From a virus: a stretch of 36,223 nucleotides of DNA. The stretch lies in the UHGV virus genome UHGV-0136979; one strand, written 5' to 3'. Shown piece after piece: positions 50 through 36,173 of the stretch. Position 1 is the first letter of the stretch. Every line of letters starts with the position of its first letter. The notes below the pieces were generated by a model, which saw only the letters and a program-made list of their open reading frames with translations, was not told where the DNA came from and made no database searches. The translations under genes and the position numbers were made by a program.

Positions 50-292
50 ATGTATACCTATAAAATGATTCAGGTGCCGCCGAATATTTCTGTAAAAGCC
101 AAGGATAATAAGTCTGGTGTAGCTGCTGCATATCTTCAGGGGGTGGTCAATGAGCAGGCTGCTGAAGGTTGGGAGTTTCAGCGAGTTGATACCATTGGTA
201 TTGAAGAGCAGCCAGGATGTTTCAATGGAGGAAAGGTACAGGTTTTCCAGTACTATGTGATTACTTTTCGAAAAAAAGTGCCAGATGCTTAA
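50..292 (+). CDS. small protein of unknown function (DUF4177-like by eye); flanking or cargo gene
   Basis: 80-aa track ORF; AGGAG about 9 nt upstream of the ATG at 50; 8-nt overlap with the next ORF suggests an operon. Family assignment is from memory only. Confidence 0.5.
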   Translation: MYTYKMIQVPPNISVKAKDNKSGVAAAYLQGVVNEQAAEGWEFQRVDTIGIEEQPGCFNGGKVQVFQYYVITFRKKVPDA

Positions 293-518
293 ATGGGTTA
301 GTATTCGCCTGATTCTTTATTATCGCGCCCATGCGCCAGCAAGAATTCGTAACAGATGTCGTTATACTCCAAGCTGCTCAGCTTATACTTTGATTGCAAT
401 AAGGCGCTTTGGTTTTTTTGAAGGGTGGCGATTAGGCTTGAACCGGATTTATCGCTGTCGTCCGCCTAATGGTGGTGCTGATTATCCCCCGCATATTTGT
501 AAATATCGCAAATCGTGA
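285..518 (+). CDS. YidD-family small protein (putative membrane protein insertion efficiency factor-like)
   Basis: 77-aa track ORF with the RYTPSCSAY motif resembling the conserved Cys/Thr-Pro-x-Cys-S-x-Y core of YidD proteins; followed by an intrinsic terminator. Confidence 0.55.
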   Translation: MLKWVSIRLILYYRAHAPARIRNRCRYTPSCSAYTLIAIRRFGFFEGWRLGLNRIYRCRPPNGGADYPPHICKYRKS

Positions 519-647: not shown

Positions 648-788
648 TTACTGCTTACACTGTAAGAACGCCGCAAACTCCGCTCCCCAGAAGCTCATCC
701 GTATTTCACACAGCGAACCGTGCAGCATCCAGATGATGAGGATTGCCGTCACGCAGAACGTGATGGCCGTAAGCGATTTTTGCGACAT
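648..788 (-). CDS. Hok/Gef-family type I toxin-like small membrane peptide (46 aa), not in the ORF track
   Basis: Own translation: MSQKSLTAITFCVTAILIIWMLHGSLCEIRMSFWGAEFAAFLQCKQ. N-terminal hydrophobic helix plus the SLCEIR and E-x-AAFL-x-CK motifs recalled from HokA/Hok/HokE. GGAG lies 8 nt upstream of the ATG at 788 inside a possible CTCC/GGAG hairpin; a perfect 9-bp-stem hairpin (617..638) follows the stop. Confidence 0.6.
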   Translation of the reverse strand: MSQKSLTAITFCVTAILIIWMLHGSLCEIRMSFWGAEFAAFLQCKQ

Positions 789-1597: not shown

Positions 1598-2356
1598 CTA
1601 CTCTCTGTAAAATTCTGCGTGTAAAATTGAGGCCAGTGCTGATGGGTTTTCCCATGACATGGAATGTCCTGCTTTTGGCACTATTGCAACAGATATTCCT
1701 GATTCTTTTATATGCTGGAAATCATTGTCTGGCAATGATTGTTCGCCGAAAATTAGTGTACGTGAACAGGGCAGATTAAGGAAGATATCTCTCCATGATG
1801 GAGTGGCTCCATCAACCAGACTTTTGGCTCCTCGCCATATTGCCCATGGGGCTGCATTCTGGAGTTCACCTTTCCATGGGGATGTCTCTTGCTCCAGTAA
1901 TTCATCGTATATGTGTGAGATAAACTCTGCTTCTGGTTTCTCTATTATCTTACGACTATATGTACCTCCACCAGAGTGAAAATTAGGTTCAGAAACTACA
2001 AGCTTTCTTGTTCGTTCATGTAGTTGTCTGGCTACTTCAATCGCAATACTTCCTCCCATACTGTGACCATAAATATGGAACTGTGAGAGATTTAATGTTT
2101 CTACTACTTCAATAACAACTTTAGCTTGATGGGATATGCTGTAATCGAATCTTTTAGGCTTATCACTAAACCCATATCCAGGGAGATCTATCAATATTGC
2201 TCGTTGTCCACCAAATGCAGGGTCTGCAACAACCCGTGGATATTCATAAGAAGAAGAACAGCCAAGCCCATGAATAAAAATAACAGGAATACCCTGACCA
2301 GGTAAATCATGCCAACGTACATTTGCTCCGGCAATTAAAGAAAACAAACTGAACAT
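1598..2356 (-). CDS. alpha/beta-fold hydrolase (esterase-like; BioH/YbfF-like by eye), cargo gene
   Basis: 252 aa; HGLG oxyanion region, GHSMGG nucleophile elbow and C-terminal AGHSMSWENP histidine region; AT-rich flanks (1241..1597, 2357..2482) contrast with the phage backbone. Confidence 0.8.
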   Translation of the reverse strand: MFSLFSLIAGANVRWHDLPGQGIPVIFIHGLGCSSSYEYPRVVADPAFGGQRAILIDLPGYGFSDKPKRFDYSISHQAKVVIEVVETLNLSQFHIYGHSMGGSIAIEVARQLHERTRKLVVSEPNFHSGGGTYSRKIIEKPEAEFISHIYDELLEQETSPWKGELQNAAPWAIWRGAKSLVDGATPSWRDIFLNLPCSRTLIFGEQSLPDNDFQHIKESGISVAIVPKAGHSMSWENPSALASILHAEFYRE

Positions 2357-21722: not shown

Positions 21723-23474
21723 ATGATTCAGGACGCTTTTGTGCGCCAGCGTGCGCGGCAACTTTACTGGCAGGGTTATCCGCCCGCAGAAATATCACGT
21801 CTGATGGGAATAAACCCGAACACGATTTATGCGTGGAAAAAACGCGACCAGTGGGATGAAACGCCACCCGTGCAGCGTGTCACGCAGTCCATTGATGCGC
21901 GCCTCATCCAGCTTACTGAAAAACAGAATAAAACAGGCGGTGACTTTAAGGAAATAGACCTGCTGACCCGGCAGCTTAAAAAGCTGCATGATGGCCAGCC
22001 GGATGTGATGGCCGCAGGAAAGAAAGGCCGGGCGAAAAAACTCAAAAATCATTTCACGCCGGAACAGATTGCCGCACTGCGGGAAAAAATCATCAGCAGG
22101 CTGGAGTGGCATCAGCGGGGCTGGTTTGACTCCCTGACCCTTTGCAGGGAAGCCGGGATACGTAACAGGATGATCCTGAAATCCCGACAGATTGGGGCGA
22201 CCTGGTATTTTGCACAGGAAGCACTGCTGATGGCGCTGCGTGACGATGTGGCGCAACCTTACCAGCGTAACCAGATTTTTTTGTCTGCGTCGCGTCGTCA
22301 GGCGTTCCAGTTTAAAAGCATTATTCAGAAGGCCGCGGCTGAAGTTGATGTGGAGCTGAAAGGGGGTGATAAAATCATCCTCTCCAACGGCGCAGAGCTG
22401 CATTTTCTCGGCACTTCTGCTGCGTCGGCACAGTCCTATACGGGCAATTTTTATTTTGATGAATTTTTCTGGGTCAGTCGCTTTGCTGAACTGCGCAAGG
22501 TGGCTGGCGCTATGGCAACCCTCAGCGGACTGCGGCGCACCTACTTCTCCACGCCATCCACCGAAACGCACGAGGCATACGCCTACTGGAACGGCGACCG
22601 CTGGAACGAGAAAAAGGCCTCGCATAAACGCCAGCGTTTTTCTGTGGACTGGAAAACGCTGCATAACGGACTTATCTGCCCTGACCGGACATGGCGGCAG
22701 ATTGTCACGCTGGAAGATGTGGTTAATCACGGCTGGAAACACACCGATATTGACGAAATCCGTGATGAAAACACCGAAGACGAGTTCCTCAATCTCTACA
22801 TGTGTGAGTTTGTCCGCGAAGGGGAATCGGCATTTAACCTGAATATCCTGATTGGCTGCGGCGTTGACGGATACGACGACTGGAAAGACTGGAAACCTTT
22901 TGCTCCCCGCCCGATGGGAAATCGTCCGGTATGGATTGGGTATGACGCAAACGGCAGCAGTGGCAACGGCGACAGCGGCGCTGTGTCCGTGGTGGTTCCT
23001 CCGGCTGTTCCTGGTGGCCGTTTTCGAACGGTGGAGACGCGACGCGTTCAGGGGCTGGAGTTTGAAGAACAGGCCAGAGTCATTGAAGAGTTCACGTGTC
23101 GCTACAACGTGGAACACATCGGTATTGATGTGACGGGCGGGAATGGGGAGGCTGTTTATCAGATAGTGAAACGGTTTTTCCCTGCTGCTATTCCGTACAC
23201 CTTCACGCTGTCATCAAAACGGTCGCTGGTACTGAAAATGCTGCAAATAATGCGTGCCGGGCGGTGGGAATACGATCGCGCCGAACGCGAGCTGGTCGCG
23301 GCCTTTAACGCCGTGCGTAAGGTGAAAACACCGGGCGGCTTTATCACTTACGAAACGGACCGCGCGAGGGGGATCAGCCACGGCGACCTTGCGTGGGCAA
23401 CCATGCTTGCTGTCATTAACGAACCGATTGGCGGCGAAGGAGAAAACGAGCGTTTCACGGTTATGGAGTTCTGA
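21723..23474 (+). CDS. P: terminase ATPase (large) subunit P
   Basis: 583 aa (P2 gpP is 590 aa); Walker-A-like KSRQIGATW; followed by the portal gene. Confidence 0.9.
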   Translation: MIQDAFVRQRARQLYWQGYPPAEISRLMGINPNTIYAWKKRDQWDETPPVQRVTQSIDARLIQLTEKQNKTGGDFKEIDLLTRQLKKLHDGQPDVMAAGKKGRAKKLKNHFTPEQIAALREKIISRLEWHQRGWFDSLTLCREAGIRNRMILKSRQIGATWYFAQEALLMALRDDVAQPYQRNQIFLSASRRQAFQFKSIIQKAAAEVDVELKGGDKIILSNGAELHFLGTSAASAQSYTGNFYFDEFFWVSRFAELRKVAGAMATLSGLRRTYFSTPSTETHEAYAYWNGDRWNEKKASHKRQRFSVDWKTLHNGLICPDRTWRQIVTLEDVVNHGWKHTDIDEIRDENTEDEFLNLYMCEFVREGESAFNLNILIGCGVDGYDDWKDWKPFAPRPMGNRPVWIGYDANGSSGNGDSGAVSVVVPPAVPGGRFRTVETRRVQGLEFEEQARVIEEFTCRYNVEHIGIDVTGGNGEAVYQIVKRFFPAAIPYTFTLSSKRSLVLKMLQIMRAGRWEYDRAERELVAAFNAVRKVKTPGGFITYETDRARGISHGDLAWATMLAVINEPIGGEGENERFTVMEF

Positions 23475-24520
23475 TGAGCAGAAAAAATAAAAAAGTGCGC
23501 ATGAGTTCACGCATTGATCTCGCTGATGCGCTCAGGAAAGAATCATCGCTCAGTGCATTCACATTTGATGGTCCTTATCGCCTGACCGGGCATGACCTGC
23601 TGGACAATATGTACTGTGCTGATAACGGGCGGTGGTATGAAACCCCGGTGGACTGGTACGGTCTGGCAAGAGCTGCCCGGCAAACGTCCTGGCATCAGTC
23701 TGCGCTTTACTTTAAGCGTAATGTATTGCTCGGCTGCTATATTCCGCATCCGCTGCTTTCCCGGCAGGATTTCTCGGCGCTGGCGCTGGACTGGTTTGTG
23801 TTCGGTAACGCATTCCTTGAGCTTCGGAGCAATATGCTCGGCGAACCGCTTAAATTACGGCACGCCCTGGCGAAATACATGCGACGCGGAAGCGATCTTG
23901 AATCATGGTGGTATGTGCAGGATGGCAAGGACGCGTTTCAGTTTCGCCCTGGCAAAGTGTGCCACCTGATGAATCCTGACATTAACCAGGAAATCTACGG
24001 CATGCCGGAATATCTCGGCGCATTACTCTCGGCCAGCCTGTCTCATTCGGCGGACATGTTCAGAAAACTGTATTACGACAACGGATCCCACGCCGGGTGT
24101 ATCATCTACATCGGTGCAGCGCAGGTAAACCGCGAAAGCATGGACTCCCTGAAAGAAACGCTACAGGGTGCACGTGGTGGTGGTGCGTTTAAAAACGTGC
24201 TCATTCATGCGCCCAACGGGGGCAAAGAAGGTGTGCAAATTTTGCCGTTCCAGCAGATCACCGCAAAGGATGAGTTCATGAATGTTAAGGCGGCATCCCG
24301 TGATGATGTGCTGGCTGCGCACCGCGTTCCGCCGCAACTGATGGGGGCGATGCCGGGTGAAAAAAGTGCGTTTGGTGATGTGGAAAAGGCCGCGCGGGTT
24401 TACGCAATTAACGAGCTGATGCCCGTTATGGAGGCCATGAAGCACATCAATGACTGGCTTGGCGAAGAGGTGATCCGTTTTAATTCTTATGCTCTTCTTG
24501 ATGAAAAAACAGCCCCGTGA
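23474..24520 (+). CDS. Q: portal protein Q
   Basis: 348 aa (P2 gpQ is 344 aa); start overlaps the P stop (ATGA). Confidence 0.9.
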   Translation: MSRKNKKVRMSSRIDLADALRKESSLSAFTFDGPYRLTGHDLLDNMYCADNGRWYETPVDWYGLARAARQTSWHQSALYFKRNVLLGCYIPHPLLSRQDFSALALDWFVFGNAFLELRSNMLGEPLKLRHALAKYMRRGSDLESWWYVQDGKDAFQFRPGKVCHLMNPDINQEIYGMPEYLGALLSASLSHSADMFRKLYYDNGSHAGCIIYIGAAQVNRESMDSLKETLQGARGGGAFKNVLIHAPNGGKEGVQILPFQQITAKDEFMNVKAASRDDVLAAHRVPPQLMGAMPGEKSAFGDVEKAARVYAINELMPVMEAMKHINDWLGEEVIRFNSYALLDEKTAP

Positions 24521-24535
24521 TGGGGCTGTCCTTTT
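24502..24535. terminator. bidirectional rho-independent terminator shared by Q and the convergent cargo ORF
   Basis: A6-ACAGCCCC (24508..24515), loop GTGAT, GGGGCTGT (24521..28)-CCTTTTT; the Q stop codon lies in the loop and the T-tract overlaps the 3' end of the convergent ORF. Confidence 0.7.
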
Positions 24536-25059
24536 TACCAGAGTTGAACCATTTTCTGGGTGCCGTCAGGCTTGAGATTATCAATTTCAGAGAGAACGTA
24601 ATATTGAATGGCTTCACAAACGGTGGTGTATGGTGAATTACCTTCTTTAAGTGGCACGATATTATTATTAACGCGAACCTGTATTTCATCGTTATACATT
24701 GCGATCGAAAGAGGAGTATGCACGAAGGCGACTTCGCCAGGTGTGTCGTCAACCACTGTCTCAATGCTGAAAATCAGTTTTCGCTCATCATTGCCGCCCC
24801 TTGCTTTGGGGGTAGCGGCAGGAATCTGAGATAAAGGCATTCTGCGAAACCCTTCAGCCGTTTCCAGTCCGCATGAAACGTAATGCTGGCGATTACCGTC
24901 GCTATCCGTCCATGTCTGTGATGGCAGCTCCAGAGAGATTTCATAAGCATCAACAATTCCCTGGGCAATGCGTACAAGCGGGGTCAGGTCTTCATTGCGG
25001 CGAAAACTCTCCTTTACCTGATCTCGTTTTTCTCGTAACTGCTTGTAATTAATGACCAT
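24535..25059 (-). CDS. hypothetical protein (cargo gene next to portal)
   Basis: Start at 25059 (MVINYKQLREKRDQ...) preceded by GGAGG; about 174 aa; no family recognised. The track ORF extends to 25098. Confidence 0.5.
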   Translation of the reverse strand: MVINYKQLREKRDQVKESFRRNEDLTPLVRIAQGIVDAYEISLELPSQTWTDSDGNRQHYVSCGLETAEGFRRMPLSQIPAATPKARGGNDERKLIFSIETVVDDTPGEVAFVHTPLSIAMYNDEIQVRVNNNIVPLKEGNSPYTTVCEAIQYYVLSEIDNLKPDGTQKMVQLW

Positions 25060-25161
25060 AGAACAGCCTCCATTGATTTCTTTGCTCGTATTTTGCACTT
25101 ATGAAGTGTGGTCGGCAAGGTGCCGCATCACTGACGCGCTTCGCTTGTCTGCTGCTTCGCC

Positions 25162-25184
25162 GGGGCATAAAAAATTTATGCCCC
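25162..25184. repeat. perfect palindrome GGGGCATAAA-AAA-TTTATGCCCC
   Basis: 10-bp arms with a 3-nt centre, in non-coding DNA; no adjacent U-tract on either strand, so not a canonical terminator. Confidence 0.6.
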
Positions 25185-25558
25185 GACTCTCCAGCTCCTG
25201 TATCAATCAGATAATTTCGCGACGTCTTCCGACTTATCGCTATCATCGACGGCCAGACTCTTACACAATCCCGCCGCGCTGACTGCATGTTCTCGCCGCC
25301 TCAGTGCGATTTTGACGGCCTTACCTTTCATCCCATCAAATCAGAACACCTTACGTCTTTTTCACGCTCAGCGTGAGCGATACAGCCATTTTGTTGTGTC
25401 GCTGCGACATCGTTCAGGGAATGCTATTTACCCCCTGAAACGCGGGCTGTTCCCCCGTCACCTGCGCGCAGAAAAAGCGTGTTTTTTTGTGCACGCACGG
25501 ATCCTTGGCGGATCCAGCCGCCACGCGGGCCGGAAGGGCAAAAAGTCGTTCAAAAAAA

Positions 25559-25585
25559 TTGTGCAAATTTGTGCACTATTGTGCA
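25559..25585. repeat. three tandem TTGTGCA repeats at exact 10-bp phasing
   Basis: TTGTGCA at 25559, 25569 and 25579, followed by an 8-bp-stem hairpin (25588..25611), just downstream of the operon stop at 25625. Confidence 0.6.
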
Positions 25586-25624
25586 GAAGGGCGATGTGCG
25601 ATTATCGCCCTGGTTTGAGGGGGA

Positions 25625-26215
25625 TCAGGTGTTATTTTTATCTGTCGTCAGTGGGCTAAACCATCCACAATTTACATCGCAGGACTGATGCGTTCTGTCC
25701 TCGTGTTTCTCCTGCCACAATGCTTTTCCGCCAGCCTTTATGATGGCTCTTTCAACATCCCGCTCGTATCGCAAGGGCTGAAATACGTCATTAATGAAAT
25801 ATTCGCTTATGTCCGGAAGCGATACTGCAAAATTATTTGTTTGTTGCGCCGTCCGGCTATGCAGCAAAGCGGCATACTTTAATGCGTCCTGTGCTTTCTG
25901 GAATTTAAGTGCATAGTCAGTGGCGATTTTTTCCAGTTCAGCGATTCGGTTGTCTTTGGTTTCCAGCCAATCAAGTAGCGCCAATACTTCAGGATCCCCG
26001 ACATCCAACACTGTTACGCGTGATTTTTCATAATGTTCGTCGGCAAGAGTTCGGCCAATTTTGAAATCTCCATCATCACCATAACCGGAGCAGGCATAAA
26101 CAACCTGTGCTCCAGATATTCGCTGAATTGACATTTCCTCGCCGCAAATAGGGCATTTCGGTACTGGCGCAGGTGAATAACGTTCGCGTAATGCCTGATA
26201 GTCAATCTTGCTCAC
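25625..26215 (-). CDS. hypothetical protein with N-terminal zinc-ribbon-like motif
   Basis: 196 aa; GTG start overlapping the upstream stop (GTGA) with AGGAGG upstream; CPICGEEM-x14-YACSGYG motif; last gene of the parM-led operon. Confidence 0.55.
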   Translation of the reverse strand: MSKIDYQALRERYSPAPVPKCPICGEEMSIQRISGAQVVYACSGYGDDGDFKIGRTLADEHYEKSRVTVLDVGDPEVLALLDWLETKDNRIAELEKIATDYALKFQKAQDALKYAALLHSRTAQQTNNFAVSLPDISEYFINDVFQPLRYERDVERAIIKAGGKALWQEKHEDRTHQSCDVNCGWFSPLTTDKNNT

Positions 26216-26736
26216 TGGTTGCCTCCTTTGTGTTGCGTCAGCTCTTCCTGCGCCTGCATCATGCGATTGACCTGAACGCGTGTGCGTCGAACGGCAAAAT
26301 TAAATTGAAACATGAGCCGGAACATTTCTGAGGCTTCCGTGTGAGCATCACGGAGAGGTGACAGTCGGTATAGTTCTGCCTCCGTAGCTTGTTGAATCAA
26401 TGACAGATCAAATTGAAGTGCGGGTCTGGTACATTTTGCACATCTGGCAGCAAGCTCCGGCATCAGTTTCTTAACGAAGGTGTTTTGCACCGCTTTGTTG
26501 AGTTGTGTCTGCATCCAAATCGCAAATTTCAGCGAACGCATAAGTTTGATAGCCTCGGGCAGCGGCAGATAGATCATGCTGGTAGATTTGGGGGGTTGGT
26601 GAATCATCTTCACGGATACGCGATTTCGCAGCGTTCGGAAAATCGTGTTCCCAACAACAGCTTCTACGGATACAGGACAGGGAGCCAGACCAGCCCGCAG
26701 TGCTTCTTTCATTAGCATGTATTCGTATTTTTTCAT
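26212..26736 (-). CDS. hypothetical protein
   Basis: 174 aa; GAGGAAA RBS; third gene of the parM-led operon; no family recognised. Confidence 0.55.
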   Translation of the reverse strand: MKKYEYMLMKEALRAGLAPCPVSVEAVVGNTIFRTLRNRVSVKMIHQPPKSTSMIYLPLPEAIKLMRSLKFAIWMQTQLNKAVQNTFVKKLMPELAARCAKCTRPALQFDLSLIQQATEAELYRLSPLRDAHTEASEMFRLMFQFNFAVRRTRVQVNRMMQAQEELTQHKGGNQ

Positions 26737-26796
26737 CGTGTTTTCCTCGTGCGGGGCGACAGTGCACCCCGATAAAATTAAAAGCCGTCAAATTCG

Positions 26797-27108
26797 TCAT
26801 TCAGGAAATAATGCCCGGATATTCCCTGCTATCTGACTGGTTATCTGTGCGGTTGGTACTGGCTGTGACACGGGGCGTTCTGTCCTGGTTTGTGTCACCG
26901 ATAACGCCTCATCGTCAGCCCATGCAGCCAGTCGGTAAGCCTCTGCTGGATTCATTTTCAGAAGTGCCAGCCCGGCCAGAAAAGCCACGCGTTGGCCGCT
27001 TTTGCGGGCTTCTGGTGTAAGGCTGTCCAGCCAGGCGCATGCTTCGCCTTCGTTCTTGACGGCGGCGGGCTTCAGATAGAAACTTATCCGTCTGGTTGGA
27101 GTCGTCAT
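26797..27108 (-). CDS. parR: ParR-like ribbon-helix-helix adaptor
   Basis: Start at 27108, 5 nt after the ParM stop, with AAGGAG upstream; 103 aa; RRISFYLKP...LAGLALL and C-terminal IRALFPE resemble plasmid R1 ParR as I recall it. The track ORF 26797..27243 is an upstream over-extension. Confidence 0.6.
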   Translation of the reverse strand: MTTPTRRISFYLKPAAVKNEGEACAWLDSLTPEARKSGQRVAFLAGLALLKMNPAEAYRLAAWADDEALSVTQTRTERPVSQPVPTAQITSQIAGNIRALFPE

Positions 27109-27112
27109 TGGT

Positions 27113-28072
27113 TTACTCCTTGTCCATTGCGTACAGCCCATTAACCAGAGCAAACTGTGGCACCCCGTCCGCGATGAAAGTCGCATTAACTCCGCAGGCT
27201 TCGCGGATAGCGGGTGCCACAATCTCCGCCCCGCCACCGACAACCATCACCCGCCCGTAACCCGAAAAACCCGCCAGCGCGCGGATCACGCGTTGTTTCA
27301 GTGTTTCTTCCTTTTCACGAATAACCGCCATCAGGTTGGCGTAATGCGCGTCATTGTGGATGTGCTGGCGCAGCCAGGCTTCATCATGGCGATGTTCGAT
27401 AATGGTATTGGCGATGTGGTGACTGGTGCGCATACCGTTAGTGGCCATCACCGACAGTACGGCATCGGCCATCAGAGAAACGCCTACGTGTGGATCGCAA
27501 AACACCTGGCTGATACCTGCCAGTTGCCCCTGAACCTTTGCCACATCCAGCGTGGTTCCGCCCAAATCCACAATCAGCAGGGATTCAAACGGACTCATGT
27601 CAGCCAGTGCTTTAAAGCCAGCCGGAATGGATTCAGGCATAACCCGTACGTTACGGATAGTGAATGCTTCGCCGTTCTGGTACTCCACCGGGCGCATAAC
27701 GTTCGCTTTTTTGCGGCTGATGTTAGCCATGTCCGGCTGTGCGTTTGTGTCGAAATACTCGCTCAGTGGCAGGGTGACAACCACATCCACCTCCTGTGGC
27801 GTGATGCCTGATTTGACCAGCGCGTGATGAATGGCAATGACATTCACATCGCTGTACTGGTATTGCGTGTCGGTCGTCTGGACAAAGCGATCGCTGACCG
27901 GATCAAAACCATAGCGCACGCCATCAAGCATGTAGTTCGCGGGCTGCGTACCACCGAACGGCGCAGACCATTCCGACTTGAAGCTGTTCGGGCTGATGGC
28001 GTTGCGGCGTTCGCCGTTCTCAGTCCATGCCAGCTTGATGTTGGTGGAACCGTCGTCGATACAAATTTTCAT
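27113..28072 (-). CDS. parM: ParM/StbA-family actin-like ATPase
   Basis: 319 aa; MKICIDDGSTNIKLAW (phosphate-1), LIVDLGGTTLDV (phosphate-2) and VMVVGGGAEIV (adenosine) motifs; near-collinear resemblance to plasmid R1 ParM from memory. Confidence 0.85.
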   Translation of the reverse strand: MKICIDDGSTNIKLAWTENGERRNAISPNSFKSEWSAPFGGTQPANYMLDGVRYGFDPVSDRFVQTTDTQYQYSDVNVIAIHHALVKSGITPQEVDVVVTLPLSEYFDTNAQPDMANISRKKANVMRPVEYQNGEAFTIRNVRVMPESIPAGFKALADMSPFESLLIVDLGGTTLDVAKVQGQLAGISQVFCDPHVGVSLMADAVLSVMATNGMRTSHHIANTIIEHRHDEAWLRQHIHNDAHYANLMAVIREKEETLKQRVIRALAGFSGYGRVMVVGGGAEIVAPAIREACGVNATFIADGVPQFALVNGLYAMDKE

Positions 28073-28100
28073 GTCGCTTTTCCTTATGTTGATTAATTAA

Positions 28101-28216
28101 TCGTTTACGGGATTCTGAAATCCCGTTTTTGCCTGTTTTGTGCGCGCTTCATATATCGCTGCGCGTTTTTTGCTCATTTACGGGATTCGTGAGTCCCGTT
28201 TCTGTCTGTTTTTTGT
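28101..28216. repeat. two copies of a 40-bp hairpin-plus-T-tract repeat, about 73 bp apart, straddling the A stop
   Basis: Copy 1 (about 28104..28140): TTTACGGGATTCTGAAATCCCGTTTTTGCCTGTTTTG; copy 2 (about 28177..28216): TTTACGGGATTCGTGAGTCCCGTTTCTGTCTGTTTTTTG, inside the 3' end of A. The T-tracts are on the + strand although both flanking genes are on the - strand. Confidence 0.65.
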
Positions 28217-30971
28217 TTCCACTGGTCAGGCCACCCCGCAGCAGGTCTGCTTTGCGGCGGGCGCGTTCAGTGGTTTCACTGATTCTCTGTGCGTGCTCTG
28301 CGTCACGGATGGCGCGCAGCATGTCAGAAAGCACGGTAACGGGTGTTTTCATGGTGTTCTGGTCCTGCTGAAGTGTGGATGCCAGGCGTGCGGCGGCTTC
28401 AGGGTCTGATGCCCCCAGCTGTTCCAGATAGCTGGCGACCGGGTTATGGCGGATCTCCGTGCTGCTTACGCCGTGATTACGGCTCAGGCGTTGCCAGAGC
28501 TGCGTGATCCGGCTGTCCGGGCGGGTATCCGGTTTGCGTACAATTTCAAATCCCTGCGGTGCAATGATGCTGCCGTCAACGTACAGACTGCCGCCCCGTA
28601 ACAGGTGCTGCATCTGTTGTTCACCGATATGCAGGCCGAGAGATTCAGCAGACTCCCGCCATTCTTTAGCGAGTAATTCGTGGTTATCAGGCAAAGGCCG
28701 CGGCTGTTTGCGGCTCTGTGTCCAGCTCTGCATTTCATCACTGCTGTTTTTTGCCTGTTTGTCACGAAGCGAACGCATCAGCGCCCGGCGTTCGTGCCGT
28801 TTCAGTGAGCGCATCCATTCGTTCACGTCAACGCCATCAGGAAGCTGCGGCCACGGTGCTGGCCGTTCTTCCGGCTGTTCTGTCCCGTTGTTGTCCGTTT
28901 CCTGTACACGGGGACAGTTATTGCCACGAGTCCAAGGGGCGGCAGGGCCGCCCTGAAGGTCAAAACCATTTTCGCGGGCGCTGTCTTCCGCTTCCGGTTT
29001 GCGTCTTACCAGCTTCCAGTTGTCCGGATGCGTGCATACGCGGGAAGACTCCCCGATGAGCGGTGACCAGATCCCGTAAATCTGTACGCTCTGTTCACCG
29101 TAATCGTTCAGCTCATCTGCGAGGTCGTAGGCGGTGCGAATCAGGTAGTCCTTGCGTGGAACAAGTACGCCGCCCTGTTTCTCTATGTAGGTGGCAAAAC
29201 ATCCGGCATCAGCGGCAGCAAGAACCGCGTCCATTGCGTCATCCTTCAGCCGTTGCGGTCCTTCCGGGTTGCGAGCCATCTGGCTGGCAAGGCGGCGCAG
29301 TTCACGCCACACCTGACGGGAGGGGATACCAAAGAACTGGAACTGGCGGACCCGGTGAAGGCGCGCCCAGCCGATGGCGCGTTCCACGCTCTCGGCCATT
29401 GATTTTCCGGTTTCGTGGTCAACGCGTGGCTTGCCCGTTTTCGGGTCGATGCCATCCACGGCACGGCTGTCCAGGTTTTTCCCGATGTAGGTGGCGATGT
29501 AGCTGGTCGGTGTGCCTTTTGAGCCGTCGACGTACTCCGCCTTAAAGCGTGGGGTAATATCATCACCCAGCTCGTGACGATCTTCCTGAATGGCAATATC
29601 GCGGGTGTGGGACACAATAGTGTCGATTTCTTCCGGATGAGCAAAGACCATCATATGCCAGTGCACGGTGCCGTCATGGTGAGGCTCCACCGTGCGGATG
29701 CCATACCAGCGCAGGCCGTCGCGGTTCAGTTTCTTGCGGACCGCCGCAAAAAACGTGTTAACCAGGTAATCGCTGGAGTCGCGCATGGTGGCCCCGTTCC
29801 ATTTGGGATTCGGATGACCGTTCTCCGTTGTTGCGTGGTATTTTGACGGGCAGGTGACAGTCAGAAACACCGCTTTGTCGCCACGGGCTTCGGCCAGAAG
29901 TTCCAGCCCCTTCATGGTGGCCATCATTTCTGCCTTACGGTGAACCGGGTTACTTACTCCCGCGTAATACACTGTCTCGAGATCAATCGTGAACCCATCT
30001 TCGTTTTCCAGCATGAAACTTTTCAGGAAATCGCGTGTTTTCTCGCGCTGTGCGCGAAACTCGCTTAATGCGTCCTGGCTCAGATAGGGCGATGTTTTTC
30101 TGGAAACCAGACAGGCGGCGCGGAGTTGTTCTTCTCTCCACTCGCAACGTAACAGCCACAGTTTGCGTTTCCACCATTCCGTACAGGTCAGGCGAAGGAT
30201 TGCGCCCGGCAGCAGCTCCGTGTCCGGTTCGTTCCTCCGGTCTTTATCTGTTGTCAGTGCGTCATAATGTGGAGGCATGATGTGCAGGTGTAACGCCATG
30301 CGGGCCAGCATCTGATACGCCTTCAGCGTTACATCCATGGTCAGTTCGCCATCGGTCGCGCCAAAGCCATCGCAGAGTTTTTCGAAGGTGCTGCTGAACA
30401 TCGCCGCCGTCATGGTGGCCAGCGTCTGTATCTGGTGCTTGTTGAGCTGCGGCAGGTAAAGCAAATCATCCAGGCGTTCGCGTCCGGCAAGGGAGCGATA
30501 ACCCGGTGTCAGCCAGCGATGGTCGGTGCGGTCCAGACGTTCGAATATTTTGCGCAGGGTTCCGCGCGCGTAGCGTTCAGCCTGCCAGCTCTTTTTGCCT
30601 TTCCGGCGATCGGCTTCCTGTTTTTTGCGCAGGAAGGAGAGGTGGCGAATAAGCGGATCGCGCAGATAGGACGGCAGCAGGCGCAGCGAGGCCATGGCTT
30701 CATCCACCGCACCGCGTACCTGTTTTCTGGCGTCTCCTGCCAGTGTGATGGTTTTGTCCTGTTTTTCCTGTGCGTCCAGGCTTTTATTAATCAGGTTGCC
30801 CAGCGGCGTGGCGGAGAACGCCGCATCAGCCATTTCCTGGCGGCGCTCGTTCTCTGCCCGGTAGGCATCCAGCCAGGAGGAAAGCGCGGATTCAGGAACG
30901 GGGATCCCCGTTCCTTCACGCCCCACTGCGTGGCGCGGTTGTTGCCAGTCCCTGATGTACTCTGCCGTCAT
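28149..30971 (-). CDS. A: replication initiation endonuclease A (rolling-circle, HUH type)
   Basis: 940 aa; HUH-like TVHWHMMVF and paired active-site tyrosines SYIATYIGK; conserved position. About 180 aa longer than P2 gpA (761 aa, from memory). Confidence 0.9.
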   Translation of the reverse strand: MTAEYIRDWQQPRHAVGREGTGIPVPESALSSWLDAYRAENERRQEMADAAFSATPLGNLINKSLDAQEKQDKTITLAGDARKQVRGAVDEAMASLRLLPSYLRDPLIRHLSFLRKKQEADRRKGKKSWQAERYARGTLRKIFERLDRTDHRWLTPGYRSLAGRERLDDLLYLPQLNKHQIQTLATMTAAMFSSTFEKLCDGFGATDGELTMDVTLKAYQMLARMALHLHIMPPHYDALTTDKDRRNEPDTELLPGAILRLTCTEWWKRKLWLLRCEWREEQLRAACLVSRKTSPYLSQDALSEFRAQREKTRDFLKSFMLENEDGFTIDLETVYYAGVSNPVHRKAEMMATMKGLELLAEARGDKAVFLTVTCPSKYHATTENGHPNPKWNGATMRDSSDYLVNTFFAAVRKKLNRDGLRWYGIRTVEPHHDGTVHWHMMVFAHPEEIDTIVSHTRDIAIQEDRHELGDDITPRFKAEYVDGSKGTPTSYIATYIGKNLDSRAVDGIDPKTGKPRVDHETGKSMAESVERAIGWARLHRVRQFQFFGIPSRQVWRELRRLASQMARNPEGPQRLKDDAMDAVLAAADAGCFATYIEKQGGVLVPRKDYLIRTAYDLADELNDYGEQSVQIYGIWSPLIGESSRVCTHPDNWKLVRRKPEAEDSARENGFDLQGGPAAPWTRGNNCPRVQETDNNGTEQPEERPAPWPQLPDGVDVNEWMRSLKRHERRALMRSLRDKQAKNSSDEMQSWTQSRKQPRPLPDNHELLAKEWRESAESLGLHIGEQQMQHLLRGGSLYVDGSIIAPQGFEIVRKPDTRPDSRITQLWQRLSRNHGVSSTEIRHNPVASYLEQLGASDPEAAARLASTLQQDQNTMKTPVTVLSDMLRAIRDAEHAQRISETTERARRKADLLRGGLTSGNKKQTETGLTNPVNEQKTRSDI

Positions 30972-35141: not shown

Positions 35142-36173
35142 GTGATCAAGATGATGTTTTCATTGGAGGGCTTCCTTATGTCGATTAAGAAGCTCGCTAA
35201 TGGCAAATTTTGTGTGGACGTGCGGCCTGCTGGATCAGAAGGAAAGAGATTCAGGCGGCGATTTGATACTCGTGGTGAGGCTGTTTTGTATGAGCGTCAT
35301 GTATTGCAGCATTACCACGACAAAGACTGGGTTGATAAGCCAACAGAACGGCGGTCGCTGAGGGAGCTGCTGGATTGTTGGTGGTTGTATCACGGTAAAA
35401 ATCATCCTTACGGTGCGATGGAGCGAGTGCGTATTGCTGCGGTCATTAGTGATCTTGAAAGTATTAATGTTACACGCAGTGATCAACTTACTCGTAAAAA
35501 CATAATTAATTATCGGTTATTGTTGCTTAACCGCGGAATAAAACAATCCACGGTTAATCGTTATTGCGCAATGATGAGTGGTTTTTTCACAAAACTAATT
35601 GACGCAGAGGAATATTCTGGGGCTAATCCGTTTCATGATGTGAAAAAACTTAATATCAAACAGCCTGAAATGGCTTATTTGTATCATGAAGATATTCCAC
35701 GATTACTGGAGTTGTTATCTGGTGATGAATTAAAAGCCGTCTTGTTGTGTCTGGCAACAGGTGGTAGATGGAGTGAAGTTGCAAATATCAAGGGGGAGCA
35801 TGTTATTAGCGGCAAAGTCATTTTTATGGAAACCAAAAATGGGAAGCGTCGCGTTATACCTATATCGTCAGAACTGGAGTGCATGATTAAAACAAAGGCC
35901 ACTGGTCGTTTAATTTATCCAAGTTATGCAGCTGTCAGATCTGCTATCAGAAAGGTGAGGCCCGATCTTCCTGAAGGGCAGTCGATACATGTTTTACGGC
36001 ATACCTTTGCCACTCACTTCATGATTAATGGTGGGAATATCATCACTTTGCAGAGAATACTTGGACATAGCACTATTCAGCAGACGATGACTTATGCCCA
36101 TTTTGCGCCGGATTATCTGCAGGATGCTGTGCGCTTTAATCCTGTGGCTGAGTTGTCCAGATATTGCCCATAA
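35142..36173 (+). CDS. int: tyrosine integrase
   Basis: 343 aa (P2 Int is 337 aa); C-terminal catalytic region with R...HVLRHTFATH...LGH...Y (tyrosine in TMTYAHF); last prophage gene at the window edge. Confidence 0.9.
   Translation: MIKMMFSLEGFLMSIKKLANGKFCVDVRPAGSEGKRFRRRFDTRGEAVLYERHVLQHYHDKDWVDKPTERRSLRELLDCWWLYHGKNHPYGAMERVRIAAVISDLESINVTRSDQLTRKNIINYRLLLLNRGIKQSTVNRYCAMMSGFFTKLIDAEEYSGANPFHDVKKLNIKQPEMAYLYHEDIPRLLELLSGDELKAVLLCLATGGRWSEVANIKGEHVISGKVIFMETKNGKRRVIPISSELECMIKTKATGRLIYPSYAAVRSAIRKVRPDLPEGQSIHVLRHTFATHFMINGGNIITLQRILGHSTIQQTMTYAHFAPDYLQDAVRFNPVAELSRYCP

Follow-up and report, generated by a model that had tools for sequence, protein, structure and literature searches.

A ParMRC-type cassette conserved in P88-like temperate phages is independent of the variable cargo slot beside it

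Integrating prophages should not need a partition system while they are integrated, yet the virus genome UHGV-0136979 carries, directly after its replication gene A, genes for a ParM-like ATPase and a ParR-like adaptor of the kind best known from plasmids, and this cassette is under clear purifying selection. The window analysed here is the whole 36,223-nucleotide (nt) stretch of this genome, numbered from its first letter. A sequence-only reading of the window had joined parM and parR with two further genes, orf174 and orf196, in a four-gene operon, and had offered three explanations, namely an undescribed defence or superinfection-exclusion system using an actin-like filament, a partition module for an episomal or excised state, and a captured plasmid par locus with passenger genes. 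The locus therefore raises two questions: whether the four genes form one system, and what use an integrating phage might have for parM and parR. All four open reading frames (ORFs) are present on the minus strand as that reading had described them, and Shine-Dalgarno-like motifs (AAGGA, AAGGAG, GAGGA and AGGAGG) precede the four starts, in line with its claim of good ribosome-binding sites. We found that the supposed four-gene system does not exist as a unit. The region consists of two independent parts, a conserved parMR cassette and a variable cargo slot that here holds orf174 and an Ead/Ea22-like gene. The features of the cassette, with the gene that lies upstream of it, are as follows (aa, amino acids; bp, base pairs).

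27113..28072, minus strand: parM, actin-fold segregation ATPase of 319 aa, assigned from Pfam, PHROGs and PDB sequence matches
26797..27108, minus strand: parR, adaptor of 103 aa counted from its ATG, assigned from PF10784 and phrog_2515
28174..28215, minus strand: repeat 1, the first 42-nt repeat of the leader, with the palindrome ACGGGAnnnnnnnnTCCCGT, within the final codons of gene A; possible binding site of ParR (parC-like) or operator
28101..28142, minus strand: repeat 2, the second 42-nt repeat of the leader, carrying this palindrome again, in the intergenic region of 76 bp between gene A and parM; possible binding site of ParR or operator
28149-30971, minus strand: gene A, replication endonuclease of 940 aa (PF05840, E 1.4e-131), the upstream neighbour, whose 3' end overlaps repeat 1

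The identity proposed for the first gene was upheld by searches of Pfam, PHROGs and PDB, which agree that it encodes a ParM-like ATPase. ParM matched the Pfam families PF06406 (E 4.2e-82, 274 bits; cut-off 24.6) and PF21523 (E 1.1e-68, 231 bits; cut-off 27.4) as well as phrog_691 (E 7e-90), and its residues 2-316 aligned full-length to the R1 ParM structure 1mwk (E 1.4e-92), with the nucleotide-binding motifs DDGSTNIK, DLGGTTLD and GGGAE conserved between the two proteins. Matches to NCBIfam were all sub-threshold. Likewise, the second gene proved to be ParR-like and to lie directly after parM: its product matched PF10784 (E 1.6e-24, 85.9 bits; cut-off 25) and phrog_2515 (E 2.8e-58), and its ATG is separated from the parM stop by a gap of 4 nt (in the mechanical ORF list the frame is extended to a TTG at 27243). 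No match to ParR was found among PDB sequences with phmmer.

In plasmid R1, the N-terminus of ParR binds DNA and the C-terminus binds ParM. The phage ParR is conserved in its N-terminal region (RRISFYLKP...) and in its C-terminal tail, NI(R/Q)ALFPE (NIRALFPE in the window), and is variable in the linker between them. We distinguished two ParR allelic types that are approximately 53% identical and differ mainly in the linker, with ParM remaining 98-99% identical. Recombination breakpoints lie inside parR at query positions 167 and 258, and the allelic region corresponds to window positions 26797-27054 (relatives L003 and L011). The tail is kept in both types and reads NIKNLFPD in the ParR of an IncF plasmid; an N-terminal strand and a C-terminal NIxxLFP(E/D) motif are common to the window ParR and this plasmid ParR. 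Judged from these alignments, the conserved ends and variable linker fit the known adaptor design. For parM, the pairwise ratio of nonsynonymous to synonymous substitution rates (dN/dS) was 0-0.17 across nine copies, and parM is therefore maintained by purifying selection. The ORFs that we checked in relatives were intact, including those in a degraded prophage of E. coli O157:H7.

The leader upstream of parM contains a direct repeat (D1) whose two copies are 81% identical and spaced 73 bp, each 42-nt copy holding a 20-bp palindrome, ACGGGA-N8-TCCCGT, that was found at only two places in the 36 kb of the window, against 0.01 expected. To follow the locus in related phages we used a set of 80 IMG/VR loci with a ParM at least 98% identical, of which 58 have both boundaries of the cargo slot. 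The leader was present in all 78 loci that have upstream DNA, with 137-143 of its 143 nt aligned, and among 87 leaders from all loci (53 distinct variants) the arms of the palindrome were less variable than the loops. From this pattern we infer that the two repeats may be a ParR-binding site, whether parC-like or an operator. No iteron array was found upstream of parM, where the two 42-nt palindrome repeats are present instead; an IncF plasmid relative has an array of approximately 10-bp T-rich iterons. That the palindromes act as sense-strand terminators was considered and rejected, as no U-run follows them on the minus strand.

How far the cassette extends is defined on its left side by a metagenomic P2-like phage, L006, whose A protein (768 aa) is 31% identical and whose ParM is 97% identical to those of the window. 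DNA homology with this phage starts exactly at the left edge of repeat 1 and runs through repeat 2, parM and parR, and the repeats therefore belong inside the cassette. At the other side, the homology of relatives breaks exactly at the parR stop (query positions 3-5) and resumes at approximately 25585 in the conserved region of the cohesive-end (cos) site. The cassette so delimited, 26797-28215, comprises the two repeats, parM and parR. Of 5,426 complete E. coli genomes, 1,307 carry it, with 1,453 places on chromosomes and 2 on plasmids. A probe for the A-parM junction, with the P88-type A gene, matched 1,372 genomes and was intact in 1,287 of them. We conclude that P88-like (Xuanwuvirus, P2-family) temperate phages share the repeats, parM and parR as a conserved module that is tied to gene A. 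About one complete E. coli genome in four, those of UTI89, ST131 and O157:H7 strains among them, thus has a plasmid-type actin segregation machine. A scan of genome contigs with ParM, in a collection that holds one genome per species, gave three loci.

Records deposited as plasmids gave a different picture. Among the 5,000 best-scoring records only six from plasmids have a ParM at least 95% identical to that of the window, and every other plasmid ParM is less than 60% identical, with the top one at approximately 52%. Those of the six close records that we inspected proved to be large plasmids with a prophage, doubtful "plasmids" or a phage circle in the free state. With tblastn the phage ParR was found in only seven plasmid records, of which the inspected ones were P88-like phage DNA and the rest show only the same parM/parR annotation on the A side; in ordinary plasmids it was undetectable by this method. 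Because of the gap in ParM identity and this pattern for ParR, parMR appears to represent a separate, phage-associated ParMRC lineage and not a recent capture.

The arrangement is not new. Rousset et al. 2022 (Cell Host Microbe, PMC9122126) noted a putative plasmid partitioning system in about one P2-like phage in four, for which they proposed plasmid maintenance, and their Table S5 catalogues this gene order as StbA, Plasmid_stab_B, a hypothetical protein (WP_000759755) and Ead_Ea22. GenBank records of P88, phiSM and others annotate ParM or partition proteins, and the phiSM paper lists the partition gene as a fitness factor. As a feature, the cassette is therefore already published and annotated. 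What is added here is its boundaries including the leader repeats, its linkage to gene A, the ParR allelic types, the analysis of selection and the separation of cassette from cargo.

This separation becomes apparent downstream of parR, where the following features lie.

26212..26736, minus strand: orf174, 174 aa, a narrowly distributed orphan in the cargo slot with no family match
25625..26215, minus strand: orf196, an Ead/Ea22-like protein of 196 aa (PF13935) with a GTG start
25560..25606, minus strand: terminator-like hairpins ending the transcription unit, an 8-bp GC-rich hairpin and then a short hairpin with U7, just before cos
25522-25541, no strand: inferred cos site, where the mature genome has its right end and the cargo slot its border, taken from the end of LR595891

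Between the parR stop and cos, the 58 IMG/VR loci with both boundaries fall into 27 cargo length classes, from 539 to 3,719 bp. Only three of them have orf174 together with an Ead gene; orf174 occurs without Ead in a further three, and Ead without orf174 in 12. Similarly, the whole four-gene block is found in just 25 of the 5,426 complete E. coli genomes. In annotated relatives the slot contains Ead alone, a ClpX-type zinc-finger gene with Phd/Doc, or DUF4760 or almost nothing; in UTI89 it holds a ClpX-type zinc-finger gene, an XF1762-family gene and hypothetical genes, and in P88 a ClpX-like gene and a hypothetical gene. The operon claimed for the four genes thus stands in so far as they are likely to be co-transcribed, being on one strand with no terminators between them, but it does not stand as a unit. 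The check that the sequence-only reading had suggested, for co-occurrence of the four genes elsewhere, fails, as homology breaks at the parR stop and the cargo is swapped. We conclude that orf174 and orf196 are accessory genes of early type exchanged with lambdoid phages and are not partners of ParMR.

Some individual relatives deserve description. L003, from E. coli O157:H7 F1273 (NZ_CP038376.1, 3310743-3321837), is a degraded P2-like prophage with a frameshifted tape-measure gene and an IS3 element right after parR; it still has intact A, parM and type-2 parR genes, and its 81%-coverage pattern recurs in many O157:H7 genomes. L006 is a 79.8-kb ENA metagenome scaffold in which the par cassette stands beside a different A gene; the string of small genes after it is longer and comprises genes for SSB, a ClpX-type zinc-finger protein and an orf174 homologue, then a short Ead gene and two unknown ones. 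A P88-like prophage with a ParM 97% identical to that of the window was also found on a contig labelled as Gram-positive (L012, titled Vagococcus sp. WN89Y), and this label most likely reflects enterobacterial contamination of the assembly.

As regards transcription, no minus-strand terminator was predicted between A and parM or between parR and orf174, and the hairpins that end the unit have a folding z-score of -2.74. A scan for sigma-70 promoters gave none in the parM leader and none before orf174. Since no terminator separates A from parM and no promoter was predicted in the leader, it is plausible that parMR is expressed by read-through from the early operon via A. The cassette is probably transcribed with, or just after, gene A.

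The phage itself integrates. The window encodes Ogr, a Hok/Gef peptide and a tyrosine integrase (35142-36173) and is collinear with P88-like genomes, and we therefore assign it to an integrating P2-family phage of P88 (Xuanwuvirus) type. The locus is the cos-proximal hotspot between A and Q, the position of tin and old in P2, just as the sequence-only reading had it: gene A lies upstream, and the terminase and portal genes (21723-24520, plus strand) and the inferred cos lie on the other side. We placed cos at approximately 25522-25541, some 90 bp past the orf196 stop, because the linear end of the phage record LR595891 maps to window position 25541. The flanking stretch 25131-25585 is conserved in relatives. 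A search of the window for the exact P2 cos sequence, with up to 3 mismatches allowed, gave no match; the inferred site may resemble the cos sequence of P2/186.

What, then, might an integrating phage do with such a cassette? On balance we think that it probably provides ParMRC-type handling or segregation of the free circular phage genome, and does so independently of the cargo slot. By homology with R1 ParMRC, dimers of ParR would bind the leader palindromes through the conserved N-terminal domain, the C-terminal tail of ParR would capture ParM-ATP filaments, and growth of these filaments would move or separate copies of the circular phage genome. The cassette would matter only while phage DNA is free, either after infection and before integration or after excision during replication, and such free DNA would rarely be a plasmid state. 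That a free phage circle can be abundant enough to assemble is seen from pZ1323PEC0009-2, a 34,461-bp circular record that was deposited as a plasmid and is a complete P88-like genome. A role on the free genome fits better than stable plasmid lysogeny, and it has a precedent in AlpC and AlpA of the CGP3 prophage. Of the three explanations offered by the sequence-only reading, a partition module for an extrachromosomal state accordingly emerges as the most plausible, with homology as its basis.

Several points weigh against this view. P2-type replication depends on A, and by analogy with P2 the A gene should be repressed in lysogens, which makes it doubtful when a free genome would need partition; the lack of a predicted promoter in the leader bears on the timing of expression. 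The leader is not a canonical R1-type parC, having only two palindromic sites, and no co-variation of ParR allelic type with changes in the palindrome was seen. Of the 1,455 places where complete E. coli genomes carry the cassette, just 2 are on plasmids. Lastly, no functional study of the cassette was found in the literature searched.

More tentatively, and at rather less than even odds in our estimation, the handling of the free genome might take a specific form, in which the cassette is an early-phase cytoskeletal device of an integrating phage of Gram-negative bacteria, expressed with A, that moves or separates free circles and uses the two repeats as a minimal centromere. If this were true, the benefit would be a higher efficiency of replication or packaging, or the presence of the genome in both daughter cells before integration, and the role would resemble that of AlpAC and not plasmid maintenance.

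The published suggestion of Rousset et al. 2022 (PMC9122126), that the main role is stable maintenance of a plasmid prophage, would have P88-like phages lysogenise as low-copy plasmids whose inheritance ParMRC ensures. The cassette is indeed homologous to a true plasmid-stability system, and one complete P88-like genome has been deposited as a 34.5-kb circular plasmid. However, excised phage DNA in the course of replication could account for this circular record, we saw no plasmid-type replicon, and most of the few records from plasmids are either large plasmids with an integrated prophage or mis-assigned replicons. Because 1,453 of the 1,455 E. coli places are chromosomal, with 2 on plasmids, and the phage encodes a tyrosine integrase, we regard stable plasmid lysogeny as unlikely to be the main use.

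It could also be supposed that the cassette acts on other replicons, the ParR and ParM of a prophage disturbing the partition of incoming plasmids or related phages by incompatibility or exclusion. The only hints of this are the conservation of the cassette in chromosomal prophages and the existence of two ParR allelic types, and nothing points to it directly. ParM is approximately 52% or less and ParR approximately 20% identical to their counterparts on plasmids, and the sites in cis also differ in appearance; we therefore consider cross-reaction with known plasmids unlikely and give this explanation very little credence.

We give marginally less again to the idea that the four genes are one defence or superinfection-exclusion system built on an actin-like filament. 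It is true that the locus lies in the A-to-Q hotspot of P2, which is rich in defence systems, and that the four genes share a strand with no terminator separating them. However, searches of PADLOC-DB v2 with ParM, ParR, orf174, orf196 and orf187 (a gene on the far side of cos, described below) gave no matches at E up to 1, parMR stays invariant while the genes downstream are swapped, with all four together so seldom (3 of 58 loci, 25 of 5,426 genomes), and in their sequences ParM and ParR keep every feature of a partition pair. Moreover, StbA and Ead_Ea22 appear only in the locus tables of the supplement of Rousset et al., so none of the systems tested by those authors contained them. The defence proposal of the sequence-only reading is thus not sustained.

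Least probable of all is a recent capture of a par locus from a plasmid, passenger genes included, or the decay of the cassette to a relic without current function, for although the ParM family is best known from plasmids and the exact block also occurs on an IncHI2A plasmid (there, though, inside an integrated prophage), the gap in plasmid ParM identity, the absence of this ParR from ordinary plasmids by tblastn, the P88-like phage DNA in the inspected close records of both searches, the strong purifying selection and the intact ORFs leave the capture that had been proposed unsupported as a recent event.

The two cargo genes of the window differ in how much can be said of them. For orf174 no family was found in Pfam, PHROGs, NCBIfam or PADLOC; among 5.8 billion proteins it forms 8 clusters, only 3 clusters came from 1.84 billion representatives in a profile search, and tblastn against 50,697 phage records gave no match. 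Its AlphaFold model, with a predicted local distance difference test score (pLDDT) of 46, is too poor for a fold search. The accession in the published table, WP_000759755, is that annotated for the orf174 counterpart in pS2122_1 and is 99% identical to the window protein.

By contrast with the earlier description of orf196 as unknown, its product belongs to the Ead/Ea22-like family PF13935 (E 7.6e-32, 111.2 bits over aa 2-140; cut-off 27). Its N-terminal module is Cys-rich and zinc-ribbon-like, a resemblance already noticed in the sequence-only reading; a coiled coil occupies the middle of the protein, with a small module at the C-terminus. The AlphaFold model (pLDDT 65) has a long helix at 75-123, and a Foldseek search of the PDB with it gave no match at E of 0.001 or below (best E 0.67), the C-terminal domain of Ea22 included. 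The Ead/Ea22 family, with 511 homologues, is strongly mosaic, having interchangeable N- and C-terminal modules around the coiled coil.

The stop of orf174 overlaps the start of orf196 as GTGA, and on this arrangement the two genes appear to be translationally coupled. A strict pairing of orf174 with Ead, as three metagenomic homologues had suggested, was rejected because three IMG/VR loci have orf174 followed by other small genes. A 48-bp stretch (26183-26230) that spans the orf174 stop and orf196 start is 94-100% identical in more than 100 records of lambdoid, Stx and P22-like phages, and is probably a conserved recombination linker for the exchange of ead/ea22 modules between unrelated phages. 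Lambda Ea22 has a reported pro-lysogenic effect, and the family consists of very early lambdoid genes. Our guess would be that orf174 and orf196 form an early accessory module that acts on host physiology or on the choice between lysis and lysogeny.

Elsewhere in the window, the following features were found.

24535-25098, minus strand: orf187, 187 aa, phrog_5091 (E 8e-66) with no Pfam family, between the portal stop and the cos region
1598-2356, minus strand: ORF for a 252-aa alpha/beta hydrolase (PF00561, E 4e-21), within the insert 1282-2475
50-292: DUF4177-like ORF, at the left end of the window
285-518: YidD-like ORF (PF01809, E 4e-18), at the left end of the window
648-788: Hok/Gef toxin peptide (E 4e-7), at the left end of the window

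The sequence-only reading made no mention of orf187. This gene is missing from P88 and pZ1323PEC0009-2, but a Salmonella relative has it (95% aa identity), as do several IMG/VR loci, and its position marks out a further small cargo slot beyond cos. The insert at 1282-2475, between ogr and gene D, is of low GC content (approximately 40%), has no counterpart in the P88-like reference circle and resembles a moron. The Dam and Com genes at the matching end of pZ1323PEC0009-2 have no counterpart in the window.

Among known systems, the genes closest to the cargo are ea22 of lambda and ead of P22, early genes of the exo-xis region. With these orf196 shares PF13935 and a three-part layout of short N-terminal part, coiled coil and C-terminal domain; unlike them, it is found in a P2-family phage beside cos, its N-terminal module is Cys-rich and zinc-ribbon-like, and it lacks a significant fold match to the C-terminal domain of lambda Ea22 that was solved by nuclear magnetic resonance. 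For the cassette, the partition system that Rousset et al. found in the P2-like hotspot and the ParM or partition genes of P88, phiSM, 520873 and P884B11 are the same cassette in the same place, at 94-100% DNA identity. Phage-plasmids of the P1, N15 and SSU5 types are set apart by extrachromosomal maintenance from a plasmid replicon of their own, mostly without integrating, whereas here an integrase is present, nearly all E. coli places are chromosomal (1,453 of 1,455) and there is one circular 34.5-kb record. ParMRC (StbA/StbB) of R1 and IncF plasmids shares with the cassette the homology of ParM, the order parM-parR, a PF10784 ParR and, upstream of parM, repeats that in the phage are candidate cis sites. 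It differs in that its ParM is approximately 52% or less and its ParR approximately 20% identical to those of the window and in having iterons of approximately 10 bp in place of two 42-nt palindrome repeats, and in the phage the genes are carried by an integrating P2-family element directly after replication gene A.

The nearest functional parallel is AlpA/AlpC of the CGP3 prophage of Corynebacterium glutamicum, in which efficient replication of the phage requires the actin-like AlpC together with its adaptor AlpA, AlpA binds a site upstream of the alpAC operon, and AlpAC acts on excised circular phage DNA (Donovan et al. 2015, PMC4446434). The host and the type of phage are different, and the function of AlpAC has been shown experimentally whereas the window cassette is known from its sequence. 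Nevertheless, going by the published description, CGP3 is likewise an integrated prophage that pairs an actin-like protein with a DNA-binding adaptor, and the adaptor's site, like the candidate site here, lies upstream of the two genes.

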